Made by a program: the position numbers and the translations under genes | In this document: positions 4,756-50,535 of the stretch, in pieces | Position numbering within the stretch: position 1 is the stretch's first letter | How the letters are laid out: the number at the start of each line of letters is the position of its first letter | NCBI GenBank assembly: GCA_029259185.1 | Contig: JAPDJF010000014.1 | Location: 2,148-66,147, forward strand | Origin: Hadesarchaea archaeon | Lineage (GTDB): Archaea; Hadarchaeota; Hadarchaeia; Hadarchaeales; WYZ-LMO6 | DNA: 64,000 nucleotides | Direction: 5' to 3' | The notes under the pieces: model-generated | Database searches by the model: none | Seen by the model: the letters and a program-made list of their open reading frames with translations, nothing else | Told to the model about the DNA's origin: nothing

Positions 4756-4956
4756 CTAAATCGGAATCTAGAGTGAAGTGCAAAATGGCTTCAAACCCAA
4801 GCTATTTCCTGCCATGACTATTTTTCCTTCTTAATAAGCCATTGATCCTTCAACACGTTTCACCTCGGGGACAAGCCCCTTCCTTTAGGGAGGGGTAGTT
4901 GACTAGCCCGTTTTCTGAGGAAAAGCCCTTGTTCCGACCATATAAAAGCGGGCCCG

Positions 4957-5229
4957 GTGGGATTCATACTCAAATGGGTTCGGGTCCCAACTCAGGGGCG
5001 TACCGTATTAATACCATTTTGGGCAGATGACCGACGGTGGGAAGCGATGCTAAACAAACAAATCGGAATACGACTGACCCCAAGGCACTACGCTCTCGTG
5101 AGGGAAGTCGCCAAGAGGCGCGGAGAGGACGTAAGCGTTTTCGTGCGACGGTCCCTCCTGCGGGAGCTGGCCGTGCTCTCCTACCTTTCAGAGGACGAGA
5201 AGAAAGCCCTGGGGGTTCTAACGAAATGA
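4957..5229 (+). CDS. ribbon-helix-helix (CopG/Arc-like) DNA-binding protein
   Basis: 90 aa. The C-terminal segment VSVFVRRSLLRELAVLSYLSEDEKKAL is typical RHH. The gene starts inside the tRNA-3'-end-like direct repeat at 4949-4965. Confidence 0.45.
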   Translation: MGFILKWVRVPTQGRTVLIPFWADDRRWEAMLNKQIGIRLTPRHYALVREVAKRRGEDVSVFVRRSLLRELAVLSYLSEDEKKALGVLTK

Positions 5230-5660
5230 AGATTTTGGCCCCCTGGGAGGAAGTCGTGGGGGGAGCTCGAGGGGTTGAAGGAGAGGGGGAGTTCTCCACG
5301 TGGTGCTTGACGAGAGGGCGGTGGAGGTTGGTACTTCGGTCCTCCGGGAACTCGCCGGCATGGAAGGGAAGCTCACGGGGATTTTGCGCACGGACTCCGG
5401 GTTCAGGGTGAGGGAAATCAGAGCCGGAGCGGGAACTGCTCGGGGAGAAAAGGGTGAGAGGGGATTAGAGATCGCGAGGACCCTAGAGCAGAAATGGAAA
5501 GGCGAGGACGAGATCGCAACCAGAGAACTTCTTCCGCCGTGCGTGTCGTGGAGGAGGGGTGAGATCCTGAGCAGGAGGCCCACGAAGCCTGACTTCAAAC
5601 CCGAGAAATTTGTGTGCATGTGTGTGCACGACCCCTGTGACGGAAGCCAGGGGAAAAGAG

Positions 5661-5838
5661 GCAGAATTCGGCTTCTTTTCTTCCAATTTATGCAATGTGA
5701 AAGAATTCTACATGTATTTTTCTTCCATACTTCACAAATTTGCTTTCCTATACCTAAATTTGTGAAGAATTCTTCCATAGAAGAATTCTTTTCTTCCATG
5801 GAAGAATTCTACACGAATTTTGCGAGTTTTCTTCCGAA
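5661..5838. promoter_or_regulatory. operator-like repeat array upstream of the 5860 RHH gene
   Basis: Four copies of a GAAGAATTCT palindromic core (GAATTC centre). Five copies of the direct repeat TTTTCTTCCA within ~180 bp. The array lies directly upstream of the ATG at 5860. Confidence 0.45.
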
Positions 5839-5859
5839 CTGCACGCTTGGAGGGTTGGG

Positions 5860-6333
5860 ATGGGGAAGATAAAGGTAAACCACGTGATTGACGAGGAGCT
5901 CTGGAAAACCTTTAAAAAGTTCGTTTTCAGCCAAAGCGGGAAGATCCACGGTTCTTTAAGTGAGGCCGTCTCCCGGGCGCTGGCCGCCTACATGTCTTCC
6001 GGCTCGAACTCTTCCCCTGCCCACACATGCTCACACATTTCCGACCGGAAGGGGGGGAAGAAGGAAAAAACCGAGCGCATCTACCGGGAGCTCGCCGCCC
6101 ATGTGGCCCCAGGAGAAATAAGGGTGAGGAGGGAAGCCATCGAGGAGGCGATCGCGAGGGTGGTGTCGAACGATCCCCGGATGCTCCGCCAGTACCTCCA
6201 GCTACTGCAGACGCTGGGGTACATCGAGCTGGACGGGTTCGGGGTGTACAAGCTCCCCCGTGAGATCGCCCGCCTCGAAGCGGACGAAAGGCTCCGGGCG
6301 ATCCAGAAGGCAGAAGCCGCCGACGGAGCCTGA
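5860..6333 (+). CDS. CopG/RHH-like N-terminal domain protein (plasmid/virus-type regulator)
   Basis: 157 aa. The N-terminus VNHVIDEELWKTFKKFV...SLSEAVSRALAAY resembles beta-strand/helix RHH regulators. The C-terminal half is helical and uncharacterised. Confidence 0.45.
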   Translation: MGKIKVNHVIDEELWKTFKKFVFSQSGKIHGSLSEAVSRALAAYMSSGSNSSPAHTCSHISDRKGGKKEKTERIYRELAAHVAPGEIRVRREAIEEAIARVVSNDPRMLRQYLQLLQTLGYIELDGFGVYKLPREIARLEADERLRAIQKAEAADGA

Positions 6334-6892
6334 GCGTCTAGCGCATTTCCCGGGTGCTCGACTGGTATTTGCTAGGTCTTCCCCGAGTTCCGGCCTTGCG
6401 GATCCGAACCCCGCCGGACCTAGTGCCGCAACGCCTGTCCGCGATAAGCATTATTCATGTGAATATTGTTTACACCCACCGGAATGCGTGTTCAAAAAAA
6501 GGTTCTGCGGGAGGGGCTGGGGGAAAAGGATTCAATGATTACCAGTAACCAGCCGAAGAATACAAAATTTGGCGAAATCGCCAAAACTTGTAAAATCACC
6601 CCCCGCCCCACCGTTCAGCATTCTGAGATCCCGCTGGCTGGCCGAGGGGGGAGGCGATAGAAGCAATACTCACATGAGTAATGCTTCTATTCCCGATCTC
6701 CGCGTGGTCGTCCCGAAATCGGAGTACGGGCGTATCTGCGAGCGCGCGAAGGCTGGCCGAGGGGGAAAGCGATATAAGCAATATTCACATGAATAATGCT
6801 TATATCTATATCCGAAAAGATAAGCAATGTTCACATGAACAGTACTTATAAATTACATCCGAAAAAGGTAACAATATCTGAGCCAGCGGGCG

Positions 6893-7093
6893 GTGGGCAA
6901 AAAATTACAACTTTTACTCAAATTGGTAAAAGTTGTAAAATCCGGATCCGAGCCGATAGAGGAGATCGCCCAGAAACTCGGTCTAGACCTCACGCTGGCC
7001 TGGGCGATGAGACTCGACGGCTTGGACGACCTGTCCCGGCTGAGGCTCTTGAGCGAGGGGGAGGCGGAAGCTCGGCGGGATACACAAAACTGA
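6893..7093 (+). CDS. hypothetical small protein, possible HTH
   Basis: 66-aa ORF between the palindrome copies. Segment IEEIAQKLGLDLTLAWAMRL is HTH-like. Weak call. Confidence 0.2.
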   Translation: MGKKLQLLLKLVKVVKSGSEPIEEIAQKLGLDLTLAWAMRLDGLDDLSRLRLLSEGEAEARRDTQN

Positions 7094-7289
7094 GCTTCCC
7101 AAAATTTTGGGGAAGCTGAAAACCAATTCGGCTTACGTCTAAGGCCTTGGCTATCTCCTCCTGTGTCCCCTTCAAGCCCCTTTCCTGAAGGGGTTATTTC
7201 CGTTTCTCCCCACCCCGGCGGAACTATTCTCCGCCTTCGACTCCCTAGGACAGTCCCACCGAGATTTAAAGCCCCGATTCAAGCTTGAA

Positions 7290-7472
7290 GTGGTGAACGT
7301 CGAACCGGTGATAGGGAGGGAGGTCGAGATAACCTATGCTGACGGGACAAAAAAGCGCAGGGGCAGGCTCCTGAGGGCCCCTTGCGGGTACTTCAAGCTC
7401 CTGAGCCACCACCGCACCTACCTCATCGAACAAAAATCCGTAACCGAGCTGAAGTTTTTAAAGCGCTCTTAG
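7290..7472 (+). CDS. hypothetical small protein
   Basis: 60-aa ORF (MVNVEPVIGREVEITYADGTKKRRGRLL...). No motif recognised. Confidence 0.25.
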   Translation: MVNVEPVIGREVEITYADGTKKRRGRLLRAPCGYFKLLSHHRTYLIEQKSVTELKFLKRS

Positions 7473-7890
7473 ACCCACTCTTCGTTTGCTCAGGCCGCCG
7501 GGGGGAAGGCGATAGAAGCAATATTCACATGAATAATGCTTCTATCCCCGACCTTCGCGTGGTCGTCCCGAGATCTGCGAGCGCGCGAAGGCTGGCCGAG
7601 GGGGAAGACGATGGAAGCAATACTCACATGAGTAATGCTTCCATGCCCCCTTGGTGGTGATAGGGTCTTGGGGGTGGGGGGAGTTCGGTCGGGAACTTGA
7701 GGAGCGCATCCGAGCCGGATTCATCCATATAAGTAGAAAAAGAAAACTGACCGACGAGGATCGAATTGCCATTCTAGACTCATTTTTAGCGGGAAGGGGG
7801 AAGGATTTTTGATCCAAATTTTGCACGCGTAATTTGGATAGGACAGTTCTACTCCCTTTTTAAAATGGTGATCAAAAACATTCTGAGCAC

Positions 7891-9339
7891 ATGACCGATG
7901 ACTCAAGTCCCCCTCCAACCCCCTCGGAGAGGACAAAAAACGGGAATGGCGAGAAAAGTGGCATAGAGTACTTTTCCGGAGGTTCTGCGCGGGTTCCAAG
8001 GACTACCCCCGAGGCTTCCGAAGTGGCTCCAGGGGGATATACCTGCCCTGTGTGCGGGAAGAGGTTCGACCGCCTCGACCAACTGCGAGGGCACGCCGGG
8101 CGGGCCCATAGGAAACGCGTTCGGATATCCGAGGACGGCGGCATAACGCTCTTAGAACCCCGGCACGGGGGGAGGGGGGAGCTCGGTGGGTGTATCGGTA
8201 GCAGCGGGGCGCCATCGGATCTCTGGAAGCGCCCGAAGTCGGCAACTGAGGTTTTACGAGAAGTCCTGGAGGATCACGGGCTAAGGCCTGACTTCGTAGA
8301 ATACGCTTCGAAGCGCTCGGAGCGGATGGGAGGGCTGCACCCCAACGAGCTCTGGAGCCTGCTGACCGACATGGACTCGGGGGTCAAAACGAAGGCCCAC
8401 GCGCGCTACGTTGTCGACGACTACTACTTCGCCCTGCAGCAGGAGCAGGCCAAAGCTAGGGAGGCGGGTGCGCGCGCGTCCTACCCCCTGCGGATGGGGG
8501 AGGCCGAACCCTTGCCCTTTTACTCTTCCTTCCATGAGCAAACCCCGTACCCCACCTACGAGGCCCTCCCGGTGAGGAAGCAGCCCTACGAGCCCTACCC
8601 CAGAAGGGATTACGGGAGGGCCCCAACGCGAGAGGAGGTGAGGGAATGGATAACCCAAGCCCTCGAGGAGAAGCGAAAGCGCGACGAGCTCTCGGAACTC
8701 AAGGAGAAGATAGCATCGCTCGAGTCCTCGCTTCGCGCGCAGGCGCCCTCCACCGGCCTGACCCGGGAGGAGCTCCAGCAGGCCCTGGAGGCGCACCGTC
8801 GGGATGAGGAAGCCAGGCTGATGCGCGAGCGCTTGGAGATGGAGCGCGAGCTTCGAAAAGTCGAGCGGGAGGAGCTCCTGAAGCGCGTGGAGGACCTCGC
8901 GAAGCGGGTGGAGGAGGGCCGGAGCGTCCACATCCCCCCTGCCCAATATTCGGACTCCAAGATCCAGTTCGCCGATACCATAGCTAGAGGGCTGATTCCC
9001 GAGCTGGGGAGGCGCATGCCCGTCAAGTGGGTGATCGAGGCCATCCCCACGCTGACCGGGGAGCAGAGGAGCCCCCCGCCCATAGCACCTCCAAGCGGGA
9101 AATACAAGATCGAGGACTTCGTGTCGCCCGAGTACGTGGTGGAGAATTGCCCTAACTGCGGGGCCGAAGTCACCATGAGAGACCACGCGTGCCCGAGGTG
9201 TGGCGTCCCCCTGCCACGACATCCCTCCCCACGCGTAACCGGTGCAGAGCCTATAACCCCCGTTGTCAAGGAATTGCGAGGGGAGGAACGGGTGAAGCTG
9301 GTGAGGAAAGAGGAGGGCCTTTCGAAACACCCGATATGA
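7891..9339 (+). CDS. zinc-finger / coiled-coil protein, unknown function
   Basis: 482 aa. N-terminal C2H2-like finger (YTCPVCGKRFDRLDQLRGHAGRAH). Long charged coiled-coil in the middle (ELSELKEKIASLESSLRAQ...RERLEMERELRKVEREELLKRVEDL). C-terminal zinc ribbon (CPNCGAEV...CPRCG). Confidence 0.5.
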   Translation: MTDDSSPPPTPSERTKNGNGEKSGIEYFSGGSARVPRTTPEASEVAPGGYTCPVCGKRFDRLDQLRGHAGRAHRKRVRISEDGGITLLEPRHGGRGELGGCIGSSGAPSDLWKRPKSATEVLREVLEDHGLRPDFVEYASKRSERMGGLHPNELWSLLTDMDSGVKTKAHARYVVDDYYFALQQEQAKAREAGARASYPLRMGEAEPLPFYSSFHEQTPYPTYEALPVRKQPYEPYPRRDYGRAPTREEVREWITQALEEKRKRDELSELKEKIASLESSLRAQAPSTGLTREELQQALEAHRRDEEARLMRERLEMERELRKVEREELLKRVEDLAKRVEEGRSVHIPPAQYSDSKIQFADTIARGLIPELGRRMPVKWVIEAIPTLTGEQRSPPPIAPPSGKYKIEDFVSPEYVVENCPNCGAEVTMRDHACPRCGVPLPRHPSPRVTGAEPITPVVKELRGEERVKLVRKEEGLSKHPI

Positions 9340-18849: not shown

Positions 18850-19126
18850 CCTAACGACTTCGATGCTTGCCTCACCCTCAGCTCCTTCCGCTTCGGCCTT
18901 GGCACGTTTAAATTGGGGCTCGGGTGGAAGCACTTGGGGAGTTTCGGGGAGCTCGTCAGCCTGCCCAAGAGATGGCCGATTGGTAGAAGTTCATTTTTCT
19001 CAAATCTTTTTCAAGTTCCTAGGTTAAAGCCCGAAGGGAATCCCATCCAAAACTCATGGCACCTAGCAAGACCGAGGTAAAATCCTTGGCGTTTGTTGGA
19101 AGTCGGCTAGTCTGATCCTAGAAAGC

Positions 19127-19720
19127 TCATCTAACGATAACCCATAATTTCTCTCTGAATTCTTCTCTTGCTTCTTCCGTACAGATGTTGAAGGCTAGAG
19201 GAAATCTCCCTTCCTTATATCCTTTTACAGAAAACGAACAGACAACACACTCACCTTTTGGCATCCTTCTCGGATTTACGTATTCAATTGTATAGTGATC
19301 GTGCCAATCCTTTGTTTCACATCTAGGAATTGTCCCATATTCTTTTCTTACAAATGCTCTGATATTTTTTATCACTACAGGATGTCCTTTTAATCTGTTC
19401 AAGAAGCCAAAACTTATTATTCTCAATCTTTGAGGGGCATCGAGCCAGAATCTGACATGAAGTTCTACCTCTTTTTTCTTCGGGATCTCTATCTTGCTTC
19501 CGAGAGGGATTTCCTCATCATCCTTTTGTCTTTCAGAAAAATATTTGACAATGTGCTTCCTTTTCTCGGGTAGATAGAACTCGGGACCTCTTATTACTGG
19601 TTTAGAGTATACCTCACCAAAAATCTGTTTTCTTAAAAGGCGAGTTTGATGTGCAACGAAGATAAGTGTTCCAAATGCAAGAACCAACGCCACGAGTTCT
19701 ATTAATTCTAATATTTCCAT
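19127..19720 (-). CDS. hypothetical protein with N-terminal TM anchor (AT-rich island)
   Basis: 197 aa. Lies within the low-GC segment. Confidence 0.45.
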   Translation of the reverse strand: MEILELIELVALVLAFGTLIFVAHQTRLLRKQIFGEVYSKPVIRGPEFYLPEKRKHIVKYFSERQKDDEEIPLGSKIEIPKKKEVELHVRFWLDAPQRLRIISFGFLNRLKGHPVVIKNIRAFVRKEYGTIPRCETKDWHDHYTIEYVNPRRMPKGECVVCSFSVKGYKEGRFPLAFNICTEEAREEFREKLWVIVR

Positions 19721-19733
19721 GCAAACACGATTC

Positions 19734-20285
19734 TTACCTATCTTTTATCGAGTGAGTGCTCCCTGAAAGGTGGTTGAGGGAACAGTCCATTAATTTTTGA
19801 GAAGATTCATCAAATTTGGCAATCTTTACGCGCTCGTAAAAGCCGAACTCATAAACCACAAGGCTATACCTTTTGTCAAAAAAGCGCCTAATCTCTTCGG
19901 GTAACGGTTTAGGAGAAATCAGCATTATATACTTAGCATCGAGCACGATCCCGTAACCCCTCGTCTGGAGGATGTCCTTAATCCTGATTTTGTTAGCCTT
20001 AACTTCCGCCACAATGATGTCCCGAGACTCGTAATGCTCACTTTTGCTCGTTATCACGTAGGCCATTATGTCAGGAATAAACCGCTCCATGTGAAACATA
20101 TAAAGAGAGAGATCGTCCAACTTTCTTTTCAATTGCTTGCTAAGTTCCTTTCTCTCACCAGTTGGCCTCAAGGTGACATTCGCCCCTTTCCATAAAGTGC
20201 AAATAAAATCTTTTAAAACTGGCTCGTAAAGAGTTTCCTCTTTGCTCATCCTAGCACGACTTTTAAAGCTCTTCATAAGGTTCAA
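19734..20285 (-). CDS. hypothetical protein (AT-rich island)
   Basis: 183 aa. Tightly packed between its neighbours on the same strand. Confidence 0.45.
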   Translation of the reverse strand: MNLMKSFKSRARMSKEETLYEPVLKDFICTLWKGANVTLRPTGERKELSKQLKRKLDDLSLYMFHMERFIPDIMAYVITSKSEHYESRDIIVAEVKANKIRIKDILQTRGYGIVLDAKYIMLISPKPLPEEIRRFFDKRYSLVVYEFGFYERVKIAKFDESSQKLMDCSLNHLSGSTHSIKDR

Positions 20286-21189
20286 TTCTCCATCTATCGA
20301 TTAATTCTCCAGTTTTCTGGAGGATTCTCAGATGTTTTCTGATCTCATTTAAAAATTCTTCCTCCGAATTCAAGAACCTCTTTAAATTGTAATTGCTCTC
20401 TGCTATTTGAGATCCAAAATACCACATTCCACAGTTTACTCTTTCTGGGGAAGCGCCAACTCTCTCAGAAGATCTAACGATAAATTTGGCGCGACCTTTG
20501 TCTGTAAGTTTGTTATCTGAAAGTTCATCAACTACTCGCCTAACCCATATATCTATCGGTTGCAAAAGGTACCGATTTTCTTTAACATCAATCCCAAAAA
20601 AGATTGAAACATCACGCAGAAATAGAGATGAGATTTTACTCCCAACACCATTGATTTCTAAAATTTTGTTATGAACATCGTAAACATCCTCTGCTTTGCC
20701 CCGCTGCAGCTTTTCTCTCGCGAATAAAACAATGTCGTGGTCATATTCTTCTTTAAGGTATTTTTGTAAAAACTCAATCGCCGAAAGTCCGCGTGTTTCT
20801 TCTTTTTTGACCTTGCCCTTAATTTTGCGATCATAATGCTCTCCCTTAGGGGCCATAGGATTGTTTCCAACATTTGGCTCCCTCTCACCGAGCTCTCGAT
20901 TGAACTCCTCCCACACTCTGCGGGGCAACTTACTGTCCCAAATATCCTCGCGCTTGAGCCCTCCAACAACCCTTTTCGCTACGTGGGAGTACTCAGGAGG
21001 AGCACCCTGCCTCGCAAAAGCATAATAGCCAAGAAATAATCGTAAAGCACCAATCCAATCTTTCTTCTTATGATACTCCTCAAACACCCGTTCGAGGAAT
21101 CTCCTGTTGAAAATCTCAAAAATTGCCTCAAACTGCTTCATCCACCTGTTCCCAGTTCTCATTTTCTTCATCTTCTTTAGAAACTCCAT
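20263..21189 (-). CDS. helix-hairpin-helix (HhH-GPD-like) DNA glycosylase-like protein
   Basis: 308 aa. KILEINGVGSKISSLFL is a Gly-Val-Gly HhH motif. PIDIWVRRV resembles the EndoIII PVDTHV segment. Confidence 0.4.
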   Translation of the reverse strand: MEFLKKMKKMRTGNRWMKQFEAIFEIFNRRFLERVFEEYHKKKDWIGALRLFLGYYAFARQGAPPEYSHVAKRVVGGLKREDIWDSKLPRRVWEEFNRELGEREPNVGNNPMAPKGEHYDRKIKGKVKKEETRGLSAIEFLQKYLKEEYDHDIVLFAREKLQRGKAEDVYDVHNKILEINGVGSKISSLFLRDVSIFFGIDVKENRYLLQPIDIWVRRVVDELSDNKLTDKGRAKFIVRSSERVGASPERVNCGMWYFGSQIAESNYNLKRFLNSEEEFLNEIRKHLRILQKTGELIDRWRIEPYEEL

Positions 21190-21454
21190 GTACCACGACT
21201 AGACTATCTCTACTTTACCTTTCAAATAGATAACGACTTTAGTCTTGGATAGCTCGTGGATGACTCCTCTAACCTCAGGATCACGATATCTCCTGCCGAT
21301 GCCCAAGCTAACCACTTTGTTTAGGGACTGAAGAATCTACATATAAACCTCATGGAGCTCGGAACTTGGGGTTCTCTTCGAAACTTTTGACCTCTGCTGT
21401 TGAGTGATGTTGGGAGGCTGTGGCCCGTGGTGACCCGAACCCGAGGGGCAATTT

Positions 21455-21763
21455 TTAAGCTTTCCAAAGCGCCAGCGCGAGCCCGATCAAAAACGTTGCG
21501 GATGTGTACGGCAAAACGTCTAAGTATCCCTCACCCGATTCGTACAACTTAGGCAGGAATTCCATCGCTTTACCCCAAAGGTCTTCAAAAGTCACAGTCA
21601 TGGATCCGGTGGCGACTAAAACGATTATCAAAGCCATTACAGCCAAAGCCAACTTTATGACTTTTTTGATTATTGCCCCCACGAGCAGACCGATTATAAA
21701 AGGCACGACGATTGGGATCAACCAAGCGTATTCGGGAGGGATCGGGACTTGAATTCCTGACAC
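21455..21763 (-). CDS. hypothetical membrane protein
   Basis: 102 aa, three hydrophobic helices. Confidence 0.35.
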   Translation of the reverse strand: MSGIQVPIPPEYAWLIPIVVPFIIGLLVGAIIKKVIKLALAVMALIIVLVATGSMTVTFEDLWGKAMEFLPKLYESGEGYLDVLPYTSATFLIGLALALWKA

Positions 21764-22175
21764 CCTATTTTATGTAATTTTTGACTTTCTAAATGCTTTG
21801 CTTTCATGAGCTACTTTGAACCTCTACCTAATTCGATTTTTGGGGTTTTGCGGAGAACGGTGGGAGAAAGAGCAAACTTGAAAGGGATATTCCCCGTTCG
21901 CGGTTTTCTTTTTTCGTGCGTGTTTAGCTGTTTTGCCATCTGAGGCTTAGGGTGGCTACTATTCCCAAGACGCGCATTACGATAGAACCAAAGTGGATTT
22001 CCGTCGCGAGTACTACTTTGAATTCAAGAGGCATCAGTTTCTGACCTTGTATGTATTAAAGCTCATTCAACTTTTTGTGAGCATTAAAGAACTAGAAACG
22101 ATGAAATCAAAGAGCCCGAGAGGACCAATGATGGTGATATAAAAACTGGATCATCGATTTTAGGATGATAGAGGA

Positions 22176-22934
22176 ATGCCCACCGCCCTGCTGAAGGATC
22201 TCAAGGCCAAAATCGCCGAGCTTGAAAAGGAGATAAAAGAGCTGAAACTGAAAGGCCCAGAAACCTGCTCTGCCTGCAGAAAGCCAATTGGGAAGGAAGA
22301 AGGATTCTACTGGAAGGGAAAACCGTATCATTTCTCTTGCCTACCCAAAGAAGCAATAGAAGCAATAGCCCATTACGTGGGCCTTAAGCTCGACATAGCA
22401 GTGATAAGGGAAAGAGAAAGAGAAGAAATCAGCCATTTGTACGAGGAGTACACAAAGAACTGGAAACAACTTAAAGTATCTCCTCTTACTTCGCTTGACG
22501 AGAAGGAAAAGATCGAAGAACTAACTCAATCACTTCAAAAAATTTTGGAGAAGCACGAAAATCTACAAATCCGGAAGCTCTTCCCTGACAGTCCCCAAGA
22601 AATAATTACAACAGCAAGAGTTGAATACTTGCTAGAAAAGTTTTTTTCTCAACCACCAGAGAAGCGTAAACGTGTATTGAACTCTAAGTCTCCGGGGACA
22701 ATTCTGAAGGAATTTATAGATCAGATCTGCCTACTCCCCGAAGAGAAGGAAGTGGGAATTTTGATTTCTCTCGTAGTTAAAAAAGCCCTAGGTGGATTGC
22801 AAAAAAGGAAGGGGCTAGGTGGGTTGCAAAAAAGGAAAGGGCGCTCTATCGCTCCTCGACACGCTAAAAAAACCCCTCCTTGGTATAAAGGGAAAGGAGA
22901 ACTTAGACACGAGCTGCTTGGAAAATATGACTAA
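22176..22934 (+). CDS. coiled-coil protein with Zn-ribbon and C-terminal GLGGLQKRKG tandem repeat
   Basis: 252 aa. Zn-ribbon CSACRKP...HFSC. Duplicated KALGGLQKRKG motif. Confidence 0.45.
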   Translation: MPTALLKDLKAKIAELEKEIKELKLKGPETCSACRKPIGKEEGFYWKGKPYHFSCLPKEAIEAIAHYVGLKLDIAVIREREREEISHLYEEYTKNWKQLKVSPLTSLDEKEKIEELTQSLQKILEKHENLQIRKLFPDSPQEIITTARVEYLLEKFFSQPPEKRKRVLNSKSPGTILKEFIDQICLLPEEKEVGILISLVVKKALGGLQKRKGLGGLQKRKGRSIAPRHAKKTPPWYKGKGELRHELLGKYD

Positions 22935-23550
22935 TCTTCATTTAGGTCTCCTATGTAGGCCCGCCTGAATGACCTCCGTTTTCTCTCTCACCTCTCAGGT
23001 ATAACTTCTGGACGATATTCTCCTATCAGCGGTCTGGTTGCACAATCGATCAGAGCACGATTAAATTTGATTTTACCAATAACTCGATCCGTTTACACAC
23101 AATTTTTCCGGTTAGACAATCTTTAAGACATCGCAAACTCTACCGACTTAGCTCTGACAGGTCTCTAACATTATAGCGAACCAACTATTCCGAGAAGCAA
23201 AAAAAATGATCTTCTCAAAGTTGGGAAGTACGTCTCTGAAGAGAGAAATTGTCAGACAGCTTTCGATCTTTTGGATTGCTAACCAACCGCATTTTTTGAG
23301 GATCGACTTTTCGGTTTTCTTTTTTTCGGACTAACCCTCGTAAGCCTAGAAATAGATGAAATTGAAGGAAAACCTTCCCAAGTTGAGCTGAGGGTTACCT
23401 TAACTTTTATGGTAGCGTAGACGGGGAAACGGAAACAAGTATTCTTCGAAGATGGTGACACTAGATCTTCTTATTTCGGTATGTCCTTCGCTTTGAGGAG
23501 TAGATTCCCCCGTGAGGTTTTACGGAGCTGGACATAATTGGGGAATAGGG

Positions 23551-38700: not shown

Positions 38701-39203
38701 TAAGTTTCTTTAAATTCCTGATGAAACAGTTTTCATACAAATTTTTGAAAAAATTAAATTTGAACACTGGAGCGGATAGCAGTCCGGATTCATTTCCCTG
38801 AATCCAGAAGGGGCGGGTTTCTCCTCCACGAATATCCCCACCCCGATGGACCCTTCTCCCGCGAGGTGCTCAACCGCTTGATCGAACGCCACGCGGGGGT
38901 CCAAACCCACCCTCCTCAGCTACCGGAAGCAAATGCTGGTGTGGGGGCTCATCGAGGGGGCCTCGCACGGAGGGGTCAGATGGGTAAACGGACGGTGAGT
39001 ATCGTCTTGGAGGACGAGCGCGTCTGGGAGGGCTTCTGCAGGCTTGTGGAGGCGAAATACGGCCGGAAGTGGAAGTTCTTGGGGAGGGGCGCGTTGGTCG
39101 CGTGGGATTTGAACCCCACAGTCTTGGCTTTCGCTTGAGGAGCGATTTTATCGTTTTTACCAATTTTAGCAAATCCGATAATTTCCCAGTTGGACCGCCC
39201 GTA

Positions 39204-39757
39204 AGCATTACCCATGTGGGTATTGCTTACCTTTTCGGGGATGTAAGCAATGTTCACGTGAACATCGCTTACATCGTCTTCCCCCTCGGCCGGCCTTCGC
39301 GCGCTCGCAGATCTCGGGACGACCACGCGGAGATCGGGGATGGAAGCATTATTCATGTGAATATTGCTTCCATCGCCTTCCCTCACCCATCACTGTGAAA
39401 AAATCAGATGGGGGGTTTGTGAATTTTACAAATCGTGGTAGGGGGAATAATGGCAACTAAGAGTTTAGTACCGTTCTCTTTCGCCCTAGGCCGGGCCTAG
39501 CGGGCTTCCGGGAAACCCAAGTTCTTCTTTCCAGGTTTTTCCTAGGCCCCCCAAGGGCCTTCTAGGAAGGTGGGGGTCTTGGCCCTCGTGGATCCGGGCC
39601 TTTGGGGTTAGGGGGGAAATTATAAGCATTACTCATGTGAGTATTGCTTATCTTTTCGGATGTAAGCATTGTTCACGTGAACATTGTTACGTCCGGACGT
39701 AACTTATAGAGACGTAGGAGAGACGGAAGCATTGCTCATGTGAACATTGCTTCCATC
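39204..39757. repeat. Array B of the same ~30-bp near-palindromic repeat family, inverted relative to array A
   Basis: Six copies at ~39204-39233, 39243-39272, 39340-39370, 39622-39655, 39659-39690 and 39723-39757. The composite unit 39243-39370 is the reverse complement of the array-A unit. The ORFs 38976-39386 and 39069-39398 are translations of the repeat. Confidence 0.8.
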
Positions 39758-39877
39758 GCCTTCCCCCCGTATCCAAAAAATGTGCAATTTACCAAGATTG
39801 GTAAAATTCACACTACTTGTAGTAAAAGAATAAATCCGGAAGAGTATAACATGACTCAATTGTTTATTGCTAAATTC

Positions 39878-39925
39878 TAATTCTATCCCTTTTAGAAAAC
39901 TAATTCTATCCCTTTTAGAAAAAGT
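39878..39925. repeat. tandem duplication of 24 bp (CTAATTCTATCCCTTTTAGAAAA x2)
   Basis: Exact direct tandem repeat in an AT-rich region. Confidence 0.6.
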
Positions 39926-40176
39926 ATTGGCTTTGCAGAGAGAAAATAAGAAGGCGCTGGGGCAGGATAAAATGAACCGAGCGAGCGACGGAGAGATCGA
40001 CTTCGTGCGATGTTGGCTTTCCTGCTCTCAAAGAGGACTCGCACCTAGTTGGGCGTGCATACTTCGGTCTCGGCTCCTTCCCGATATTTTACTGGTAAAT
40101 TAGTGCCGAAATCCCGTCCTCATCGCGCTCTTCGAGGATGAGGCCTACCGCAGGAAGGAAATGATAGTGAGGAAGC

Positions 40177-41520
40177 TTAGACACGCTCACAGTCGGGAGA
40201 TGGCCTGCGCACCACGATCCTCCCGCTGTTGAGCTCCCGGACGATCTCCCAGCCCTCGTTCAGGTACCGCACGAGCTCCTCCTCCCCGATGAGCTTGCTC
40301 TCGTACCTCGCGCAGTTTCCGTTGCAGTCTTCCCGGAACCTCGCTGGGGAGATCCTGAGCTTCCTTATTTCTGCCTGGAGGGCCTCGATCTCCTCGCCGA
40401 ACTCCGGCTCGCGCCCAAGTTCCTTCTGCTTCTCGATGCGGACCTTCAGGGGGTCTATTCCAAACGTCTCCGCGACCCTGCGCATCGCCTCGAGCGCCAT
40501 CTCCTCCTTCGAGGGCGCTTTTTCGGACTCAGCAGTCTGGAGGTACTCCTGCGCCCTCCGGTACGCCTCGCGCATGCTCTCCACCACGTCCTCGGGGAGC
40601 CTGCACTTGTTGGTGGTGTACCGCGCCTCGATGTCCCCCTTGTGGCCCATCCAGAAGGTTCGGTAGTCGCGGAGCACGAGCCCCTTGGACTCCGCGAGCA
40701 TGAGCTGGGTGTCGAAGTAGGAGCGCAGCACGTAGGGGCGCCAGGGGAACCCCGCATTCCTGATCGCTGACCTTATCGCGTCGCCCACGTTGGCGGCCGT
40801 GATGAACCCGATCCCCCTAAATCTAGAGGTGATCAGGGGAGACTTGGCGGTGAGCACCTCGCCCCTCCTCATTCGCTCCTCCAGGTAATCCTTTAAGTAC
40901 CCGCACCCCTCCTCGCTCAAAAACGTGAAGTAGCGGTGCCTGGCCTTGCTGAGCTCGCGCCTGACTATTACCATCGCCGGGACTCGCTCGAACTCCACCT
41001 CCCCACCCCTGACCCTGAGTTCGGGCAGGTCCCCGAGCCTCAGCCCGTCGTCCCCCCTGTAGTTGCCAAGGGTCTCGATGCGCAGCCCGGAGTGGGCCAC
41101 GAGCACCGAGGCCGCCCTCGCCTTCTTGTCCCCCGAGAGGAATATGCGTCTCAGCTCTTCCTTGGTGGGAACGCGCTCCTCCGCGAGCGAGGGCGTGTCC
41201 CTGGCCCCCCTTATCTTTATCTTCCCCACGACCGTCCGGTTGTGGTGGGCGAGCCATGACTTCACCGCCTTGAGCGTGGACTCGATGTAGCTCCCCGCCC
41301 TCCCCTTCTCCTCCTCGGCCGAAACGAAGTCGAGCAGTAGGTTGTAGAGCTTCTTCCCCCCCACCCTCCAGAGCTCCTTGGGGGTGAGGCCCACGGACCT
41401 GCAGAAGCTCCCAAGCCTGCGCAGGTAGACGTCCGCCGTGACCTCAGACCCCCTAGCCACGTTCCTGTACCAGCGCTCGACCTCCGGGTCCTCGAGCAGT
41501 TGCCTGTGGGTCCCACGCAT
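40177..41520 (-). CDS. int: tyrosine recombinase / integrase (XerC/D-SSV-like)
   Basis: The C-terminal catalytic domain contains HSGLRIETL, LRSYFDT and WMGHKGDIEARYT (R..K..H..R/H..Y). The start was set at the ATG at 41520. The 55 upstream codons in the track simply read through the tRNA. Confidence 0.85.
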   Translation of the reverse strand: MRGTHRQLLEDPEVERWYRNVARGSEVTADVYLRRLGSFCRSVGLTPKELWRVGGKKLYNLLLDFVSAEEEKGRAGSYIESTLKAVKSWLAHHNRTVVGKIKIRGARDTPSLAEERVPTKEELRRIFLSGDKKARAASVLVAHSGLRIETLGNYRGDDGLRLGDLPELRVRGGEVEFERVPAMVIVRRELSKARHRYFTFLSEEGCGYLKDYLEERMRRGEVLTAKSPLITSRFRGIGFITAANVGDAIRSAIRNAGFPWRPYVLRSYFDTQLMLAESKGLVLRDYRTFWMGHKGDIEARYTTNKCRLPEDVVESMREAYRRAQEYLQTAESEKAPSKEEMALEAMRRVAETFGIDPLKVRIEKQKELGREPEFGEEIEALQAEIRKLRISPARFREDCNGNCARYESKLIGEEELVRYLNEGWEIVRELNSGRIVVRRPSPDCERV

Positions 41521-41542
41521 TCGATGATGGGTAGAGCGGGAT

Positions 41543-41556
41543 TCTATAAAAGCGTT
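41543..41556 (-). promoter_or_regulatory. TATA-box (TTTATAG) for the integrase gene
   Basis: On the minus strand, CTTTTATAGAA lies about 27 bp upstream of the integrase ATG, between the gene and the tRNA. Confidence 0.4.
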
Positions 41557-41574
41557 TCGAACCCAAAATGGTAC

Positions 41575-41700
41575 GGGCCCGGTGGGATTCGAACCCACGA
41601 CCGTCCGGTCTCGCCACGAGTTAAGAGCTTCATCCGGTCCTCCCGACCGACGGATGCTCCACCAGACTGAGCCTCCCGGTAGCATGAGCTACTTACGGGC
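41575..41700 (-). tRNA. intron-containing tRNA, isotype unresolved; target-like site next to the integrase
   Basis: On the minus strand: acceptor GGGCCCG/CGGGCCC, discriminator G and T-arm GTGGGTTCGAATCCCAC. A D-arm-like GCTCAGTCTGGTGGAGC is present. Total length is about 126 nt, which implies one or two introns. A 5-bp hairpin GTAGC-TCAT-GCTAC is present. I could not fold the anticodon arm unambiguously. Confidence 0.55.
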
Positions 41701-41954
41701 CCGGGCCCGATAAAGCTAATTCTCCCCAATGCTAAAAATCTAATCCTCCTCGGAGCCGATCCGCTTTCCCCGGTTGCTCTTGGGTGGGAGATTGCCCCAA
41801 CAGCTCGCCACTGAGGGATCGCTTCAATCGAACAGTTTTAAAGCGGGGCGACAGTATTTCCTCCTCTTGGCGACTCATTTCCTCACAGCGGGTTTCGTTT
41901 TCATGAGTGTTCTTGCATATGTAGCGTTTTACACGGGCTACTACATGAGGATTC

Positions 41955-42317
41955 ATGATATTTTTAGTCACTCCAGCCCTGATAGGGATGTCTATTTCGA
42001 TGATGATGGGGAGCCATCCCAAAGGGGCCTTAGGCATTCTGCTCGGTGCATTGATCTTCTCTTCCGTGACTTTCGTTGCTATGGTCGCGGGAGTCGCATC
42101 GGTGGGACCATCTGGGAAAATCTCTGAAAACCAATGGAACATGTTGGTTGGGCTGAGAGACCAGCTCCCCGAAAACTGTCTCCTTTGCCCCGTGTCCCAC
42201 GAACTCATCCCAGACGACTTTCACTTATTGCCGATCGAATTAGTGCAGTGTACGTATGGTGCTGAAGCCTATGGAATACTGAAACTTCTGGTGGCCGTAC
42301 CCCTCTCGACGGGCTGA
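41955..42317 (+). CDS. hypothetical membrane protein
   Basis: 120 aa, three hydrophobic segments. Competes with an antisense 158-aa ORF (41732-42208). Confidence 0.25.
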   Translation: MIFLVTPALIGMSISMMMGSHPKGALGILLGALIFSSVTFVAMVAGVASVGPSGKISENQWNMLVGLRDQLPENCLLCPVSHELIPDDFHLLPIELVQCTYGAEAYGILKLLVAVPLSTG

Positions 42318-47029: not shown

Positions 47030-48505
47030 TCAGAAGCAAAGTTTTCCAGGGTTCATGATGTTTTTCGGGTCGAACACATTTTTCAACCTCCTGAGGACTT
47101 CCCTAGCCACCGCATCCCTATCGAAAACGATATCCGCGAGCAGGTCGTACGGTCTCGAGAAGAACGCACCATTTTCCATCAACGTTTTGCTCGCCCGTAG
47201 GTACAGGCTTTTGACAATTTCTTTCTGAGAAGAGTCGGTTGGGTCATAGGGAAGACGGAATTCGCAATGGTGACCGTGCCCCTGACACACGGGCTGGATG
47301 TAAACCCCTACCTCCGAGGGGGGGTATCCTTCCCTTCCGCAGATCTCCCCCATCAAGTTCACGAGTTTGGGTACCGCGTTGAATGAGGTTATGAAGTAAA
47401 TGTCTTGGCATCCACCCTTCTCCCTGATCTTCCAGTACGGCTCCTCGGATGGATTACTGGCCGTTCGAAGGAGCTTTTCCGCGGAGATCCCGGCCACGGC
47501 CTCAGAGATTTTCACCCCTATCCTCTGTCCCACCTCCTTCACATCTTTCTCTTGATATTCCACCCTCTCTTCAGGGAGATACTCGTAGCCTGCCAGACAG
47601 AATAGCAACACCCATGTAGGAAGTGCTTCCTTTAGATCTCTTATCGCCTCCCCGTCTTTTTCAAGAAGTGATGCCAAATTTTTTCCATTCAGGATGAAGA
47701 GTTCATCCCCCAGTCTGAGTCTCACGAGCCTGTATCCGAACTCGAGCAGGGTCTCCAGATCTTCACCTGCCGCTATGAACGGTTTTTGGATCCGAGGTAG
47801 GACCTCACACTTGATCGTTGACCAAGTGATGATTCCAAATGTCCCCTGGGATCCCTGAAGCAAACGCATGAGGCTTGTTTGGATTCCCTCACCGATCTTC
47901 TGTCGCCTGCCGGCCTTCCACTGCTCTTCGATCGTCCCAGGTCCTGCGGCTTCACCGGTTCGGAAGAGATCTCCGGTTCCGAACACCACCTCATTGCATA
48001 AAAGGGGATCCGAGTGATCGAGATGGTATTTTGGAATTATGTGGGGTTCTCTCTCAAGACAACTTCCTATCACCGATTTGGTTCTCCTCGGGGAGAGGGG
48101 CATGGGGACCCTCATTCCCTCCTTCTTCACGGCCTCTTGAAGTTCCCCCCATCTGACACCTGGCTCGACCATGACCACCCTATCCAACCGGTCCACCATT
48201 TTTATGCGGTTCATCCTGCTCAGGTCGACGATCACACCCCCAATCTCCGGGATCGTGTCTCCGCGGAACCGAGGGGGCCCCGAGCTGACGGGTATGAGGG
48301 GGATGTTCACTTCGTTCGCCCACTTCACTATCTCCACCACCTCCTCAGAACTTCCAGGCTTCACCACACCCCACGGTCTCCGGGGGGGCACGAAGCTGTG
48401 ATCAGAAGAGTATTGGTCTAGTGTTTCTGAATCTTCATAAAAGTTTTCGACCCCCACGATGTCGATTAGCCTTTCTTTCCTAAACACTTCTTTATTCTTT
48501 TTCAC
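47030..48505 (-). CDS. FAD-linked oxidase (GlcD-like, second paralog)
   Basis: 491 aa. PCMH FAD-binding domain (GVVKPGSSEEVVEIVKWANEVNIPLIP). Confidence 0.8.
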   Translation of the reverse strand: MKKNKEVFRKERLIDIVGVENFYEDSETLDQYSSDHSFVPPRRPWGVVKPGSSEEVVEIVKWANEVNIPLIPVSSGPPRFRGDTIPEIGGVIVDLSRMNRIKMVDRLDRVVMVEPGVRWGELQEAVKKEGMRVPMPLSPRRTKSVIGSCLEREPHIIPKYHLDHSDPLLCNEVVFGTGDLFRTGEAAGPGTIEEQWKAGRRQKIGEGIQTSLMRLLQGSQGTFGIITWSTIKCEVLPRIQKPFIAAGEDLETLLEFGYRLVRLRLGDELFILNGKNLASLLEKDGEAIRDLKEALPTWVLLFCLAGYEYLPEERVEYQEKDVKEVGQRIGVKISEAVAGISAEKLLRTASNPSEEPYWKIREKGGCQDIYFITSFNAVPKLVNLMGEICGREGYPPSEVGVYIQPVCQGHGHHCEFRLPYDPTDSSQKEIVKSLYLRASKTLMENGAFFSRPYDLLADIVFDRDAVAREVLRRLKNVFDPKNIMNPGKLCF

Positions 48506-48696
48506 CTATCATAAAAGTTTGCTGAGGGTGGTAAAGTTAAAACGATAGGAGATGGGACCCCATGGTGCCATAGGGCCCCTCATGAGCACGGATCACCGCA
48601 AGTGGTTGAGGGAGATCGGAAAAGTTTTGGACCCAAACGGGACCACGGACAGAATGCTTTTACCTCGATAGGGATCCGATTCAGCTCCAAGAGCCA

Positions 48697-49302
48697 TCAC
48701 GACTTGGAACACCTATTTTTCTTGATGAGTTTTCTCCAACAGGAATTGCAAAATCTAGGCGACTTTATATCGACTTCTACGATCGAGTTAGAAAAACTCA
48801 TAACACATTCACGATCCCTACAGTGGGCCAACCCGAACACGTGGCCAAGCTCATGGACGGCTTCCTTCGTTATCCGATCCAAGAGAGTAGACAAGCTCTC
48901 CTGACCGCCATAAAACTTCGGATCCAGCCTATGAATGGATACGAGCGCCCCTCTTCCCGGACATTGGGCCAACCCGAAGACGAAGTTCAAACTGGGCACG
49001 TAAAGATCCACTCCTGTGATCGCGAGTACCGACCCACCCATCCGTTCGAGGATATATCGCAACATCACGTTCGCATTATATTGTCCCCTCCTCGGATTGT
49101 ATGCTTCCAGGGGAACCTCCATCGGAAGCCCCAGCGAGACTTTTCTCAAAAGAGGCCCAAAAGCTCTACTAAGCCCGGGCTCGAGAGCGAGGACCAGCTC
49201 CCGTGGAACCTCACCGATGGGAAGCAAGTGAAGGGAAATCGACATCAAGAGAAAAACGAGACTTTCAACGTTTAATCCTAAGGGATTCTGATCAAAATAC
49301 TT
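48697..49302 (-). CDS. amzA: archaemetzincin (zinc metallopeptidase)
   Basis: HELGHVFGLAHC (HExxHxxGxxH) plus a downstream Cys pair (CNSC). The start was trimmed to the MSISLHLL Met. The longer track ORF overlaps cdc6 by 288 bp on the opposite strand. Confidence 0.7.
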   Translation of the reverse strand, partial: KYFDQNPLGLNVESLVFLLMSISLHLLPIGEVPRELVLALEPGLSRAFGPLLRKVSLGLPMEVPLEAYNPRRGQYNANVMLRYILERMGGSVLAITGVDLYVPSLNFVFGLAQCPGRGALVSIHRLDPKFYGGQESLSTLLDRITKEAVHELGHVFGLAHCRDRECVMSFSNSIVEVDIKSPRFCNSCWRKLIKKNRCSKS

Positions 49303-49323
49303 ATTGAACACCTCCCACTGGGT

Positions 49324-50535
49324 ATGGGGCTTATGTTCGACGAGATCTTCAGGGAGGAACTCGAAAAGGAGTCCGTCTTCACCGACGCCAGCAAACTCCT
49401 GCCCGATTACCTCCCTGAGAAACTTCCATGCCGGGAGGAGGAATACAGGCAACTCGTCAGGTTCTTCAAACCCCTGCTCGAGACGAGGTGTCCTCAGCGG
49501 GTGCTGATAACGGGCAAGATAGGGGTGGGCAAGACCGCGCTTGCCCGACGATTTGGCCAGGAGATCGAGAGAGTGGCTCGGAAAAGTGGGATGAACCTCG
49601 ACTACATCCACATCAACTGCAGGGGGAAGAGGACATCTTATTCCCTCTTGTTAACCATAGTTCACCGTTACTTTCCGAGGTGGCCCTCAAGGGGGGTGGG
49701 GGAGGGTGAGCTACTCTCTATGCTCACCAGTCACTTGAACAACCACGATGTATTCTCGATCATAGCCCTAGACGAAATCGACTATTTCGTCCAGCTGAGT
49801 GGATCCGACGTGCTCTATTCCCTCACGAGAGTGTCCGAGGAAAGTGGAACACCGGGGAGGATAAGTCTTATAGCCATATCCCGAAATAGAGATTTCCTCA
49901 AAGGATTGGATGCTCCCACCCAAGGAACTTTCCTACACAATGTCCTAGAACTGAACCCCTACACCGCCGATCAGTTAGAGGAGATACTGAAGTACAGGAT
50001 GAAAGAAGCGTTCAAGCGGGGAAGGGTTCAAGAGGACGTGATTCCCCTGATAGCGGAAATATCCTCTAGGAGCGGGGATGCGAGATTCGCCCTCGAACTA
50101 CTTTTCAGGGCGGGGATGATAGCGGACGAGGAAAAGAGTAAGGTTGTCTTGCCCGAACACGTGCGAGCTGCCAAAGCTTCCGTTCTCCCCGAACTCAGAA
50201 AAGATGCCATGGGGGACCTAACCCTCCATGAACTACTGGTACTTCTAGCATTGGTCAGGAGACTGAAGACGAGCAACCGAGCATACGTCCTGACAGGGGA
50301 ACTCGAAAAGAGTTATCACCTCGTGTGTGAAGAACTAAAAGAACGACCGAGACAGCACTCGAGGATGCTGAGTTACCTGTATCGACTCAGAGACCTAGGG
50401 TTCGTAGAAGTTCAACCCACCACCATACATCCAAAGGGCCAAACACAGAAGATCAGTTTGGAAGAGGTTCCAGCTCGGGAACTTGAAAAAGAGGTGGAGA
50501 AAGTGTTGGAGAGCCTCCGAAAGGAGGAGACCTAG
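49324..50535 (+). CDS. cdc6: Orc1/Cdc6 replication initiator
   Basis: 403 aa. Walker A ITGKIGVGKTALAR, Walker B ALDEIDY and sensor motifs. C-terminal winged helix. Confidence 0.9.
   Translation: MGLMFDEIFREELEKESVFTDASKLLPDYLPEKLPCREEEYRQLVRFFKPLLETRCPQRVLITGKIGVGKTALARRFGQEIERVARKSGMNLDYIHINCRGKRTSYSLLLTIVHRYFPRWPSRGVGEGELLSMLTSHLNNHDVFSIIALDEIDYFVQLSGSDVLYSLTRVSEESGTPGRISLIAISRNRDFLKGLDAPTQGTFLHNVLELNPYTADQLEEILKYRMKEAFKRGRVQEDVIPLIAEISSRSGDARFALELLFRAGMIADEEKSKVVLPEHVRAAKASVLPELRKDAMGDLTLHELLVLLALVRRLKTSNRAYVLTGELEKSYHLVCEELKERPRQHSRMLSYLYRLRDLGFVEVQPTTIHPKGQTQKISLEEVPARELEKEVEKVLESLRKEET

Follow-up and report, generated by a model that had tools for sequence, protein, structure and literature searches.

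Inverted arrays of a polar, hairpin-forming repeat within a tRNA-integrated island of a Hadesarchaeon: a candidate maintenance region of the excised form

The stretch at positions 39,204 to 39,757 belongs to a 64,000-nucleotide segment of a contig of a Hadesarchaea archaeon (the window, in what follows) and holds most of array B, one of two arrays of the same near-palindromic repeat that lie close to the two ends of an integrated element. Compensatory changes in the repeat, together with a conserved A.A mismatch and an asymmetric centre and one-sided bulge, point to a sequence that is recognised as a folded hairpin. Both arrays are carried by a single integrative island (window 4966-41573, 36.6 kb), which is shown to use a 17-bp core at the 3′ terminus of a tRNA gene as its site of recombination. 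The arrays form the only large non-coding regions of that island. The reading that we favour, tentatively and with less than even confidence, is that the arrays would be a cis-acting maintenance region, of the origin or copy-control type, for the episomal form of the island, and that this region is recognised as folded hairpins. Structured RNA comes second in our order of preference, and operators for DNA-binding regulators come third.

The repeat family is sharply delimited. A search of the window with the degenerate pattern AAGCAWTRYTCAYRTGARYAWTGCTT, allowing up to three mismatches, recovered twelve near-palindromic sites, and none of 100 shuffled controls contained any. A covariance model (R1), built on 14 copies and run over the window with its filters off, returned the same 12 sites at 44-62 bits, the next match in the window reaching only 10 bits. 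The sites fall into two groups:

Array A, 6441-7653, plus strand: palindromes at 6446-6471 (minus) and at 6661-6686, 6776-6801, 6822-6847, 7516-7541 and 7615-7640 (all plus).
Array B, 39203-39767, minus strand: palindromes at 39203-39228, 39245-39270, 39344-39369, 39624-39649, 39664-39689 and 39727-39752, all of minus polarity.

From start to start the palindromes are spaced by 215, 115, 46, 694 and 99 nt in array A and by 42, 99, 280, 40 and 63 nt in array B. A CRISPR array was rejected on the grounds that these spacings are irregular and that the sequence between the repeats is itself repeated. The first-pass annotation of this DNA had counted six palindromes and one composite unit in array B, and the pattern search and the covariance model both bear this out. 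It had also named random scatter of the family around the chromosome as the observation that would speak against a mobile-element association. Copies in the window occur only within arrays A and B, motif searches of the window place the flank motif GGGGGAAGRCGATRG and the half-site essentially within the same two arrays, and no palindrome-pattern array was found in 185,579 representative genomes, where eight single perfect palindromes in bacteria correspond to the chance level. The IMG/VR viral collection gave no match to the pattern, nor did BLAST of array B against plasmid and phage records. Four matches of the invariant core 18-mer to viral contigs had no extension and were dismissed as chance. 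A pattern scan of JGI metagenomes returned nine singletons and one array-bearing contig, L023, which is described below.

Alignment of the 14 copies, oriented by their asymmetric positions, defines a 26-nt core, AAGCA-A-TRYYCA-CA-TGRRYA-A-TGCTT, which four flanking pairs extend to a near-palindrome of 34-36 nt. Its stem of 16-17 bp is maintained through compensatory substitutions: 91.8% of the cells hold standard pairs, and five pairs, two of them in the flanks, have been altered on both sides (e.g., A-T to G-C and T-A to C-G). Doubly changed cells number 20, compared with 7.9 ± 2.2 in shuffles, not one of 500 shuffles being as high, and pairing falls to only 27-55% when the partner is slid by one to three columns as a register control. 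An A.A mismatch at the sixth pair and a CA centre are each present in 12 of the 14 copies. Selection on a folded hairpin is favoured, since the symmetric co-variation, the internal mismatch and the one-sided bulge are not what a homodimer reading the duplex would predict.

The hairpins are also polar. The A.A mismatch, the CA centre and the leader found on one side only, which is G-rich (GGGGGAAGRCGAT) in seven window copies and takes the form of an A-rich linker (CCGAAAAG) in three, are asymmetric and therefore give each copy a direction. In the covariance model the preferred strand scores about 20 bits above the other at 11 of the 12 sites. The polarity is plus for five of the six copies of array A and minus for all six of array B, so that on both sides it aims into the island. 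Among the non-Watson-Crick cells of the stem there are three G.T and three A.C, and because G.T is not in excess over A.C the stems do not decide whether the folded strand is RNA or DNA.

Beyond single palindromes, the arrays share a larger architecture. According to a repeat finder, the composite unit of array B (39237-39382, 146 nt) shares 90% complementarity with 7503-7648 and 76-86% with 6648-6848, in line with its earlier description as the reverse complement of the array A units; the GC-rich core quoted for it, CCTTCGCGCGCTCGCAGATCTCGGGACGACCACGCGGAGATCGGGGA, is found at 39295-39341. A sensitive BLAST comparison of 6200-7900 with 38900-40000 extended this likeness to a module of about 300 bp common to both arrays, 6646-6942 corresponding to the reverse complement of 39144-39382. 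Within the module a G-type palindrome is followed by the GC-rich core, two T-type palindromes and an AT-rich palindromic box. The units and the AT-rich boxes are as follows:

Composite unit M1, 6646-6806, plus strand: carries a 16-nt insertion in the core loop.
Composite unit M2, 7499-7653, plus strand.
Composite unit M3, 39237-39382, minus strand: lies in array B.
AT-rich box a, 6568-6600, plus strand: palindrome TTTGGCGATTTCGCCAAA plus TTGTAAAATC, upstream of M1.
AT-rich palindromic box b, 6902-6942, plus strand: TTACAACTTTTAC..GTAAAAGTTGTAA, homologue of 39144-39184.
AT-rich box c, 39144-39184, minus strand: TTGGTAAAAACGATAAAAT.
AT-rich palindromic box, 39415-39434: adjoins the module.
AT-rich palindromic box e, 39783-39815: GTGCAATTTACCAAGATTGGTAAAATTCAC, on the integrase side of array B.

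The boxes beside the modules measure 30-40 bp; long AT-rich tracts are absent, and the GC content of 1-kb windows stays between 0.48 and 0.55. In all three composite units an almost invariant GC-rich hairpin is sandwiched by two palindromes. When the four available units are compared, the core hardly varies and the palindromes differ, each time symmetrically. The predicted fold consists of three successive hairpins (palindrome, GC core, palindrome), with an outer pairing of a G-run and a C-run around the one-sided bulge, and its z score is -7.8 for RNA of the plus strand, -6.2 for RNA of the minus strand and -7.6 for DNA. A coding interpretation of the units was discarded, as no reading frame survives the 16-nt insertion and the substitutions show symmetry, not a codon-like pattern. 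Rfam 15 gave no match over either array at E values up to 1; a mir-451 match of 20 bits, compared with a cut-off of 66, was attributed to chance.

Contig L023 provides the only comparison from another strain. It is 97% identical to window 39051-39238 and then continues into a differently composed array that is nearer to the module of array A, with the 16-nt insertion placed, as in M1, in the loop of the core hairpin. It also has a truncated copy, its copy number and order differ from those of the window, and at the outer border of one palindrome its sequence gives way to unrelated DNA. Given this different composition, the arrays have been rearranged between strains.

The limits of the island are given by an empty site. 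In contig L034 (ERZ25515408 NODE_1648, from another sample), positions 46-700 correspond to window 42227-41574 and positions 684-756 to window 4965-4893 and then leftwards, so that window 41574 and 4965 are directly connected, with the 17-bp core present once; segment 4966-41573 is therefore one insertion. In this way the earlier proposal of an integrated element bounded by two att repeats is proven. Consistent with it, a Logan unitig from another sample (L012) terminates exactly at 41574 and a second unitig of that sample (L049) begins 30 nt before, the pattern expected if occupied and empty sites coexist in that sample. The features at the ends are:

attL core, 4949-4965: 17-bp copy of the tRNA 3′ end, cgggcccggtgggattc; L034 joins 41574-41590 to 4948 and leftwards.
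attR core, 41574-41590: cgggcccggtgggattc, the 3′ end of the target tRNA (T-arm and acceptor); L012 ends at 41574.
Target tRNA-like gene, 41574-41708, minus strand: acceptor GGGCCCG/CGGGCCC, canonical T-arm, extra internal sequence resembling one or more introns.
Integrase gene, 40177-41520, minus strand: 447 aa, 50 bp from the tRNA, with a TATA-like box at 41541-41551, 20 nt upstream.

The tRNA-like gene was called neither by ARAGORN, intron options included, nor by Rfam; its assignment comes from reading the sequence and from the arrangement of a tRNA followed by an integrase in two other loci, L028 and L030, where an integrase homologue lies a short way past a tRNA gene, in the same orientation. 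An integrase had been placed at the right end of the element, and it is indeed found there, left unsplit by integration. More than 3,694 homologues at about 60% identity, mostly from metagenome-assembled genomes of Bathyarchaeia, are named site-specific integrase, and some of them carry PF00589. The protein itself matches PHROG_1 integrase (E 1e-5), with no Pfam match at E <0.01 and no sequence match in the PDB. Integrated elements with a 17-bp att and an intron-containing tRNA as target have been described in thaumarchaea, and the island agrees with them (PMC6563490).

Further observations concern this region. Between array B and the integrase stop, window 39877-39925 contains two tandem copies of 23-25 bp, CTAATTCTATCCCTTTTAGAAAA, whose minus-strand T4-T5 tracts could terminate the integrase transcript. 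The sample with the empty att site bears another AT-rich insert about 650 bp from the tRNA (L009 10936-20789 and L034 1-48, inserted at window 42220-42227), with genes for an HNH nuclease, a protein-primed family B polymerase (PF03175), Cas1 (PF01867), a C5 methyltransferase and an HhH-GPD glycosylase, a casposon-like set. To the left of the island, a short duplication near 4857-4903 is present in L034 too, and the window is identical to contig L014 (NODE_4 of ERZ25515786) except for 3879-4079, with 16 substitutions and indels within 200 bp.

In relation to these ends the arrays are sub-terminal. Array A starts 1476 bp inside attL and array B ends 1807 bp inside attR, in agreement with the distances of about 1.5 and 1.8 kb and with the mutually inverted arrangement proposed at first. 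Being internal to the att direct repeats by this much, the arrays cannot be the termini of the mobile unit. The suggestion that they behave like terminal inverted repeats thus had to be given up: the ends of the unit are 17-bp direct repeats produced by site-specific recombination at the 3′ end of a tRNA. The idea of packaging signals finds no support, as terminase and capsid genes were not found. In addition, three loci with integrase homologues (L028, L030 and L031) contain no palindrome arrays, and the arrays are consequently not a trait of the integrase family.

On excision, the two arrays would come to lie about 3.3 kb apart on the circle, flanking a backbone that consists of the integrase, attP and the genes for the 60-aa ribbon-helix-helix (RHH), 190-aa and 157-aa proteins. 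Their polarity would then diverge from the backbone, and the other arc of 31.5 kb would be cargo. The border between the two may have a history of its own, being marked by the following feature:

tRNA-like 3′ fragment, 39095-39135, minus strand: T-arm GTGGGGTTCAAATCCCAC plus GCGACCA, from a tRNA different from the integration target.

This fragment, which L023 conserves as well, borders the array B module on its inner side, at the very point where the module ceases to match array A. It has no full partner in the window and was not called by ARAGORN with intron options. Its position suggests an old recombination scar at the border of backbone and cargo beside array B, which an earlier integration or the capture of cargo may have left.

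Small genes, most of them with putative nucleic-acid-binding products, accompany array A and its side of the backbone:

60-aa RHH (NikA-like) gene, 5047-5229, plus strand: Pfam PF21983, E 4e-5, below the curated cut-off; a gene call in L014.
190-aa ORFan, 5300-5872, plus strand: backbone; no match in Pfam or PHROG and no relative among viral contigs (IMG/VR).
157-aa ORFan, 5860-6333, plus strand: directly upstream of array A; by eye RHH-like at the N-terminus and winged-helix-like at the C-terminus.
66-aa open reading frame (ORF), 6893-7093, plus strand: between M1 and M2; by eye helix-turn-helix (HTH); a gene call in L014.
60-aa gene for an Sm/Hfq-like small beta-barrel, 7290-7472, plus strand: stop codon 27 nt before M2, TATA-like box about 25 nt upstream.

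The 157-aa protein is the sole member of its family among 5.8 billion proteins and has no relative in IMG/VR; its AF2 model, with a pLDDT of 47, is unusable. Its domain-like appearance suggests that it may bind DNA. No family match was obtained for the 66-aa ORF in Pfam and PHROG searches. The product of the 60-aa ORF at 7290-7472 has the elements of the Sm fold, an N-terminal helix and a five-stranded bent beta-sheet, and it has no Pfam match (LSM/Hfq), so that sequence does not place it in that family. HMMER searches of 1.84 billion representative proteins matched it only to itself and to two translated tandem repeats. One spurious hit, P0128 (767 aa), matches the ORF in 13 stretches and is a translated tandem DNA repeat of about 58 codons; database entries of this kind can yield very low E-values. 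For the 482-aa protein of the island, neither a relative in IMG/VR nor a homologue among 5.8 billion proteins was found. The 3′ end of the 190-aa ORF contains an inverted repeat (5756-5785 and 5791-5820) with 30-nt arms, 90% complementary, and a 5-nt spacer. The arms include ATGGAAGAATTCTACAC, which is faintly palindrome-like and reaches only 9 bits in the covariance model, and the contigs of ERZ25515926 break around this repeat (NODE_405 ends at 5589 and NODE_1 starts at 5727).

What, then, would the arrays do? The first-pass annotation had offered iteron- or origin-like arrays as an alternative, and this is viable and has become the leading functional guess. According to it, the repeats would act as folded hairpins, extruded or single-stranded, and not as plain duplex operators. 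The hairpin sets, present on opposite strands, and the AT-rich boxes would be bound by the small proteins of the element (the Sm-like 60-aa, HTH 66-aa, RHH 60-aa and 157-aa products), and this binding would start or control replication outward from the backbone. The AT-rich palindromic boxes and the small putative nucleic-acid-binding genes were counted in favour of such a maintenance role, and the opposite polarity of the two sides matches strand-specific initiation signals.

Known replicons offer several parallels. In the archaeal plasmids pTN2, pP12-1 and pT26-2, prediction placed the origin within the largest intergenic region, one that is rich in AT and in repeats and neighbours CopG- or AbrB-type genes (PMC2926602). 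With these plasmids and with section B of the Sulfolobus conjugative plasmids, the island shares large repeat-rich non-coding stretches, AT-rich patches, small genes of the CopG/AbrB type and a capacity for integration (PMC2926602, PMC4390865). Its arrays differ in having neither a recognisable replication protein as neighbour nor a GC-skew signal, and in being long, polar, covarying hairpins in two inverted clusters that are united only in the excised circle. In the SNJ2 provirus, which represents rolling-circle replicons of the Rep-Arvir or pT181 type, the replication operon is restored only upon circularisation and the origin is a conserved stem-loop hairpin beside more variable palindromic binding sites, a layout and a reconstitution on excision that the island recalls (PMC13107129). 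Nevertheless, the island yielded no Rep-Arvir, HUH or Rep_trans protein, its composite units number three and face both ways, and 36.6 kb is large for rolling-circle replication.

Single-strand initiation hairpins furnish another precedent. The ssiA and ssiB sites of IncQ plasmids are strand-specific stem-loops whose stems are sequence-specific and which lie in opposite orientation on the two strands. The island departs from them in that no primase gene was found in it, in having six copies per side instead of one, and in the kilobases that separate its two sets. Archaeal origin recognition boxes (ORB), for their part, are polar repeats with a dyad element, inverted around an AT-rich region; the element has no orc1/cdc6 gene, and no sequence resemblance to ORB repeats was noted. 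A chromosomal orc1/cdc6 gene does occur at 49324-50535 on the plus strand, 9.6 kb from array B, and the intergenic region of about 800 bp upstream of it (together with the gene, 48505-50535) is a candidate chromosomal origin unrelated to the arrays.

Several findings weigh against a maintenance region. The island has no recognisable replication initiator, primase, helicase or partition ATPase, and the repeats, as opposed to iterons or ORB repeats, adjoin no detected initiator gene (Rep, Orc1/Cdc6); the predicted proteins that flank them are ORFans. The origin model requires that an ORFan (the 190-aa protein, the 482-aa protein or another) or host factors take that part. Cumulative GC skew tracks the strand of the genes and shows no sign of an origin, a simple origin would need fewer than three composite units facing two ways, and loci with homologous integrases do without such arrays. 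As regards the episomal form itself, contig searches found neither attP-junction nor inverted-segment contigs. Finally, the embedded Sm-like protein fits a role in RNA at least as well.

This last point leads to the second reading, a possible one that we place only slightly behind the maintenance region, namely that the repeats are elements of RNA. The modules would be transcribed in sense within or downstream of two backbone units that diverge from attP, a plus-strand one with the RHH, 190-aa, 157-aa, HTH and Sm-like genes and a minus-strand one with the integrase. Folded into stable RNAs of several hairpins, the transcripts could serve as 3′ stabilisers, as terminators or to insulate backbone from cargo; alternatively, they could be small RNAs through which the Sm/Hfq-like protein controls the expression of the integrase or of a regulator. 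Such a role is consistent with the 27 nt that separate the Sm/Hfq-like gene from M2 on the same strand, and with a polarity that coincides in both arrays with the coding strand of the flanking backbone genes. The compensatory changes in the stems, the location of the insertion in a loop, the z score of the RNA fold (-7.8, the sense strand being more stable than the antisense by 8 kcal/mol) and the conserved A-rich linker between hairpins likewise speak for RNA, and AT-rich TATA-like boxes are found 30-50 nt upstream of M1, M3 and the unit at 39727. Against it, the stems show no strand bias in their G.T and A.C cells, no Rfam family was recovered at the threshold given above, and the integrase transcript, once past its stop codon, would probably end at T5-T6 tracts before it reached array B. 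Moreover, no complementary target was found elsewhere in the window (seven eleven-mers, compared with 4.6 expected), and small beta-barrels of the Sm-like kind also bind single-stranded DNA (WYL matches). More speculative still, and in our view doubtful, is the proposal that the private polar hairpin and the Sm/Hfq-like protein together represent an undescribed system based on RNA or single-stranded DNA, which would become one functional unit only on excision and circularisation and would control replication, copy number or integrase expression.

Duplex operators rank lower and are considered unlikely. Under this explanation, neighbouring dimeric regulators of the RHH, HTH or winged-helix type would bind the palindromes, and cooperative binding to paired sites would set a switch between excision and maintenance. 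The two-fold symmetric half-sites of 13 bp, the spacing of pairs at 40-46 bp and 99 bp, the adjacent candidate RHH and HTH genes and the promoter-like AT boxes interleaved with the palindromes would all suit such a switch. A single dimeric reader, however, does not predict symmetric change at five pairs; the conserved features (the A.A mismatch, an asymmetric centre and, inside the outer G/C stem, an AAGRCG bulge on one side) are those of a folded hairpin, and 34-36 bp is long for an operator. Furthermore, the covariance model places no site at the promoters of the integrase, the RHH gene or the 482-aa gene.

Still less probable is a selfish or neutral origin, in which hairpin repeats comparable to bacterial repetitive extragenic palindromes (REP) and their mosaic elements (BIME), or to miniature inverted-repeat transposable elements, proliferated locally in the non-coding DNA of the island. 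REP sequences are likewise imperfect palindromes of about 35 nt with a conserved asymmetry and compensatory changes, and they form mosaic clusters in transcribed intergenic DNA. The clustered, mosaic units of the island, the free combination of flank and core types among copies and the different copy number and order in L023, with its truncated copy, all have a similar flavour. Nonetheless, in 64 kb no copy lies beyond the two arrays, and apart from L023 no arrays were found in the 185,579 genomes, the JGI metagenomes or IMG/VR, so that the repeats, in contrast to REP and BIME, are not dispersed. Neither RAYT, TnpA nor any other transposase occurs in the island, and a Y1/HUH protein was not found in the 64-kb window. 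The orientation within each array is uniform instead of alternating, and the host is an archaeon. All in all, the arrays appear to resemble plasmid origin repeats, hairpin origins and REP/BIME, to fail the defining tests of each class that were run and, as far as sequence goes, to have no relatives except L023.

The least probable explanation, and a very improbable one, is that the arrays are terminal inverted repeats or recombination sites, that is, ends of a transposon-like unit or crossover points at which the 31.5-kb cargo would invert or cassettes would be exchanged. It draws on the inverted 146-nt units (90% identity, 31.6 kb apart), on the tyrosine recombinase that adjoins array B, on the tRNA-like fragment that directly borders the array B module on the inner side, and on a 13-8-13-like layout whose asymmetric centre recalls sites of the lox/FRT type. 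The likeness to the terminal inverted repeats of casposons and transposons goes no further than inverted sequence near both ends of the element: the mobile unit is bounded by the att direct repeats that the tyrosine integrase forms at the tRNA gene, the arrays being internal, and neither target-site duplication nor transposase was found. The segment has the same orientation in the four assemblies out of four that carry the element, and L023 is not an inversion junction, its breakpoint lying at the outer edge of a palindrome and not at the centre. Other candidates were set aside, as neither a gene nor a sequence match supports them: repeats of type III toxin-antitoxin systems, attC sites of integrons, polar motifs of the fork-trap (Ter) or KOPS kind, and DtxR/Fur boxes.

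The remaining genes of the island give it a familiar character. The cargo includes an iron-uptake set (FeoAB with a DtxR-type regulator) and many ORFans; in the 90% cluster of FeoB, the sole named member is labelled Candidatus Hadarchaeota. Between 26092 and 38683, an ATPase of the HerA type (PADLOC HerA / mad8) with a 669-aa partner that bears an N-terminal winged helix is accompanied by a C5 methyltransferase and by a type IIG/PglX/mad2-like methyltransferase, after which come an HKD-Snf2 helicase and a DUF553 transglutaminase-like protein; all of these appear to form a composite defence island. Among the proteins of the island (4966-41573) no capsid, terminase, transposase or Cas1 was found. 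Judged by its gene content, it is a cryptic integrated element, or a defence and metabolic island, and it is ordinary in kind: a tRNA-integrating cryptic element with defence cargo. Window 19000-23000, where GC falls to 0.40-0.45 compared with about 0.53 elsewhere, carries minus-strand ORFans of 308, 180 and 197 aa and may have been acquired separately.

It is tempting to take sub-terminal inverted repeats for the ends of a transposon, and these results correct that view. For most integrated elements of uncultured archaea, replication and control after excision are still "cryptic"; in an island whose boundaries are proven, the two arrays constitute a concrete candidate for a cis-acting maintenance or control region. 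If it is true that the Sm-like protein and the hairpins cooperate, this would be a rare case of an archaeal mobile element that brings along its own system of the RNA-chaperone type.

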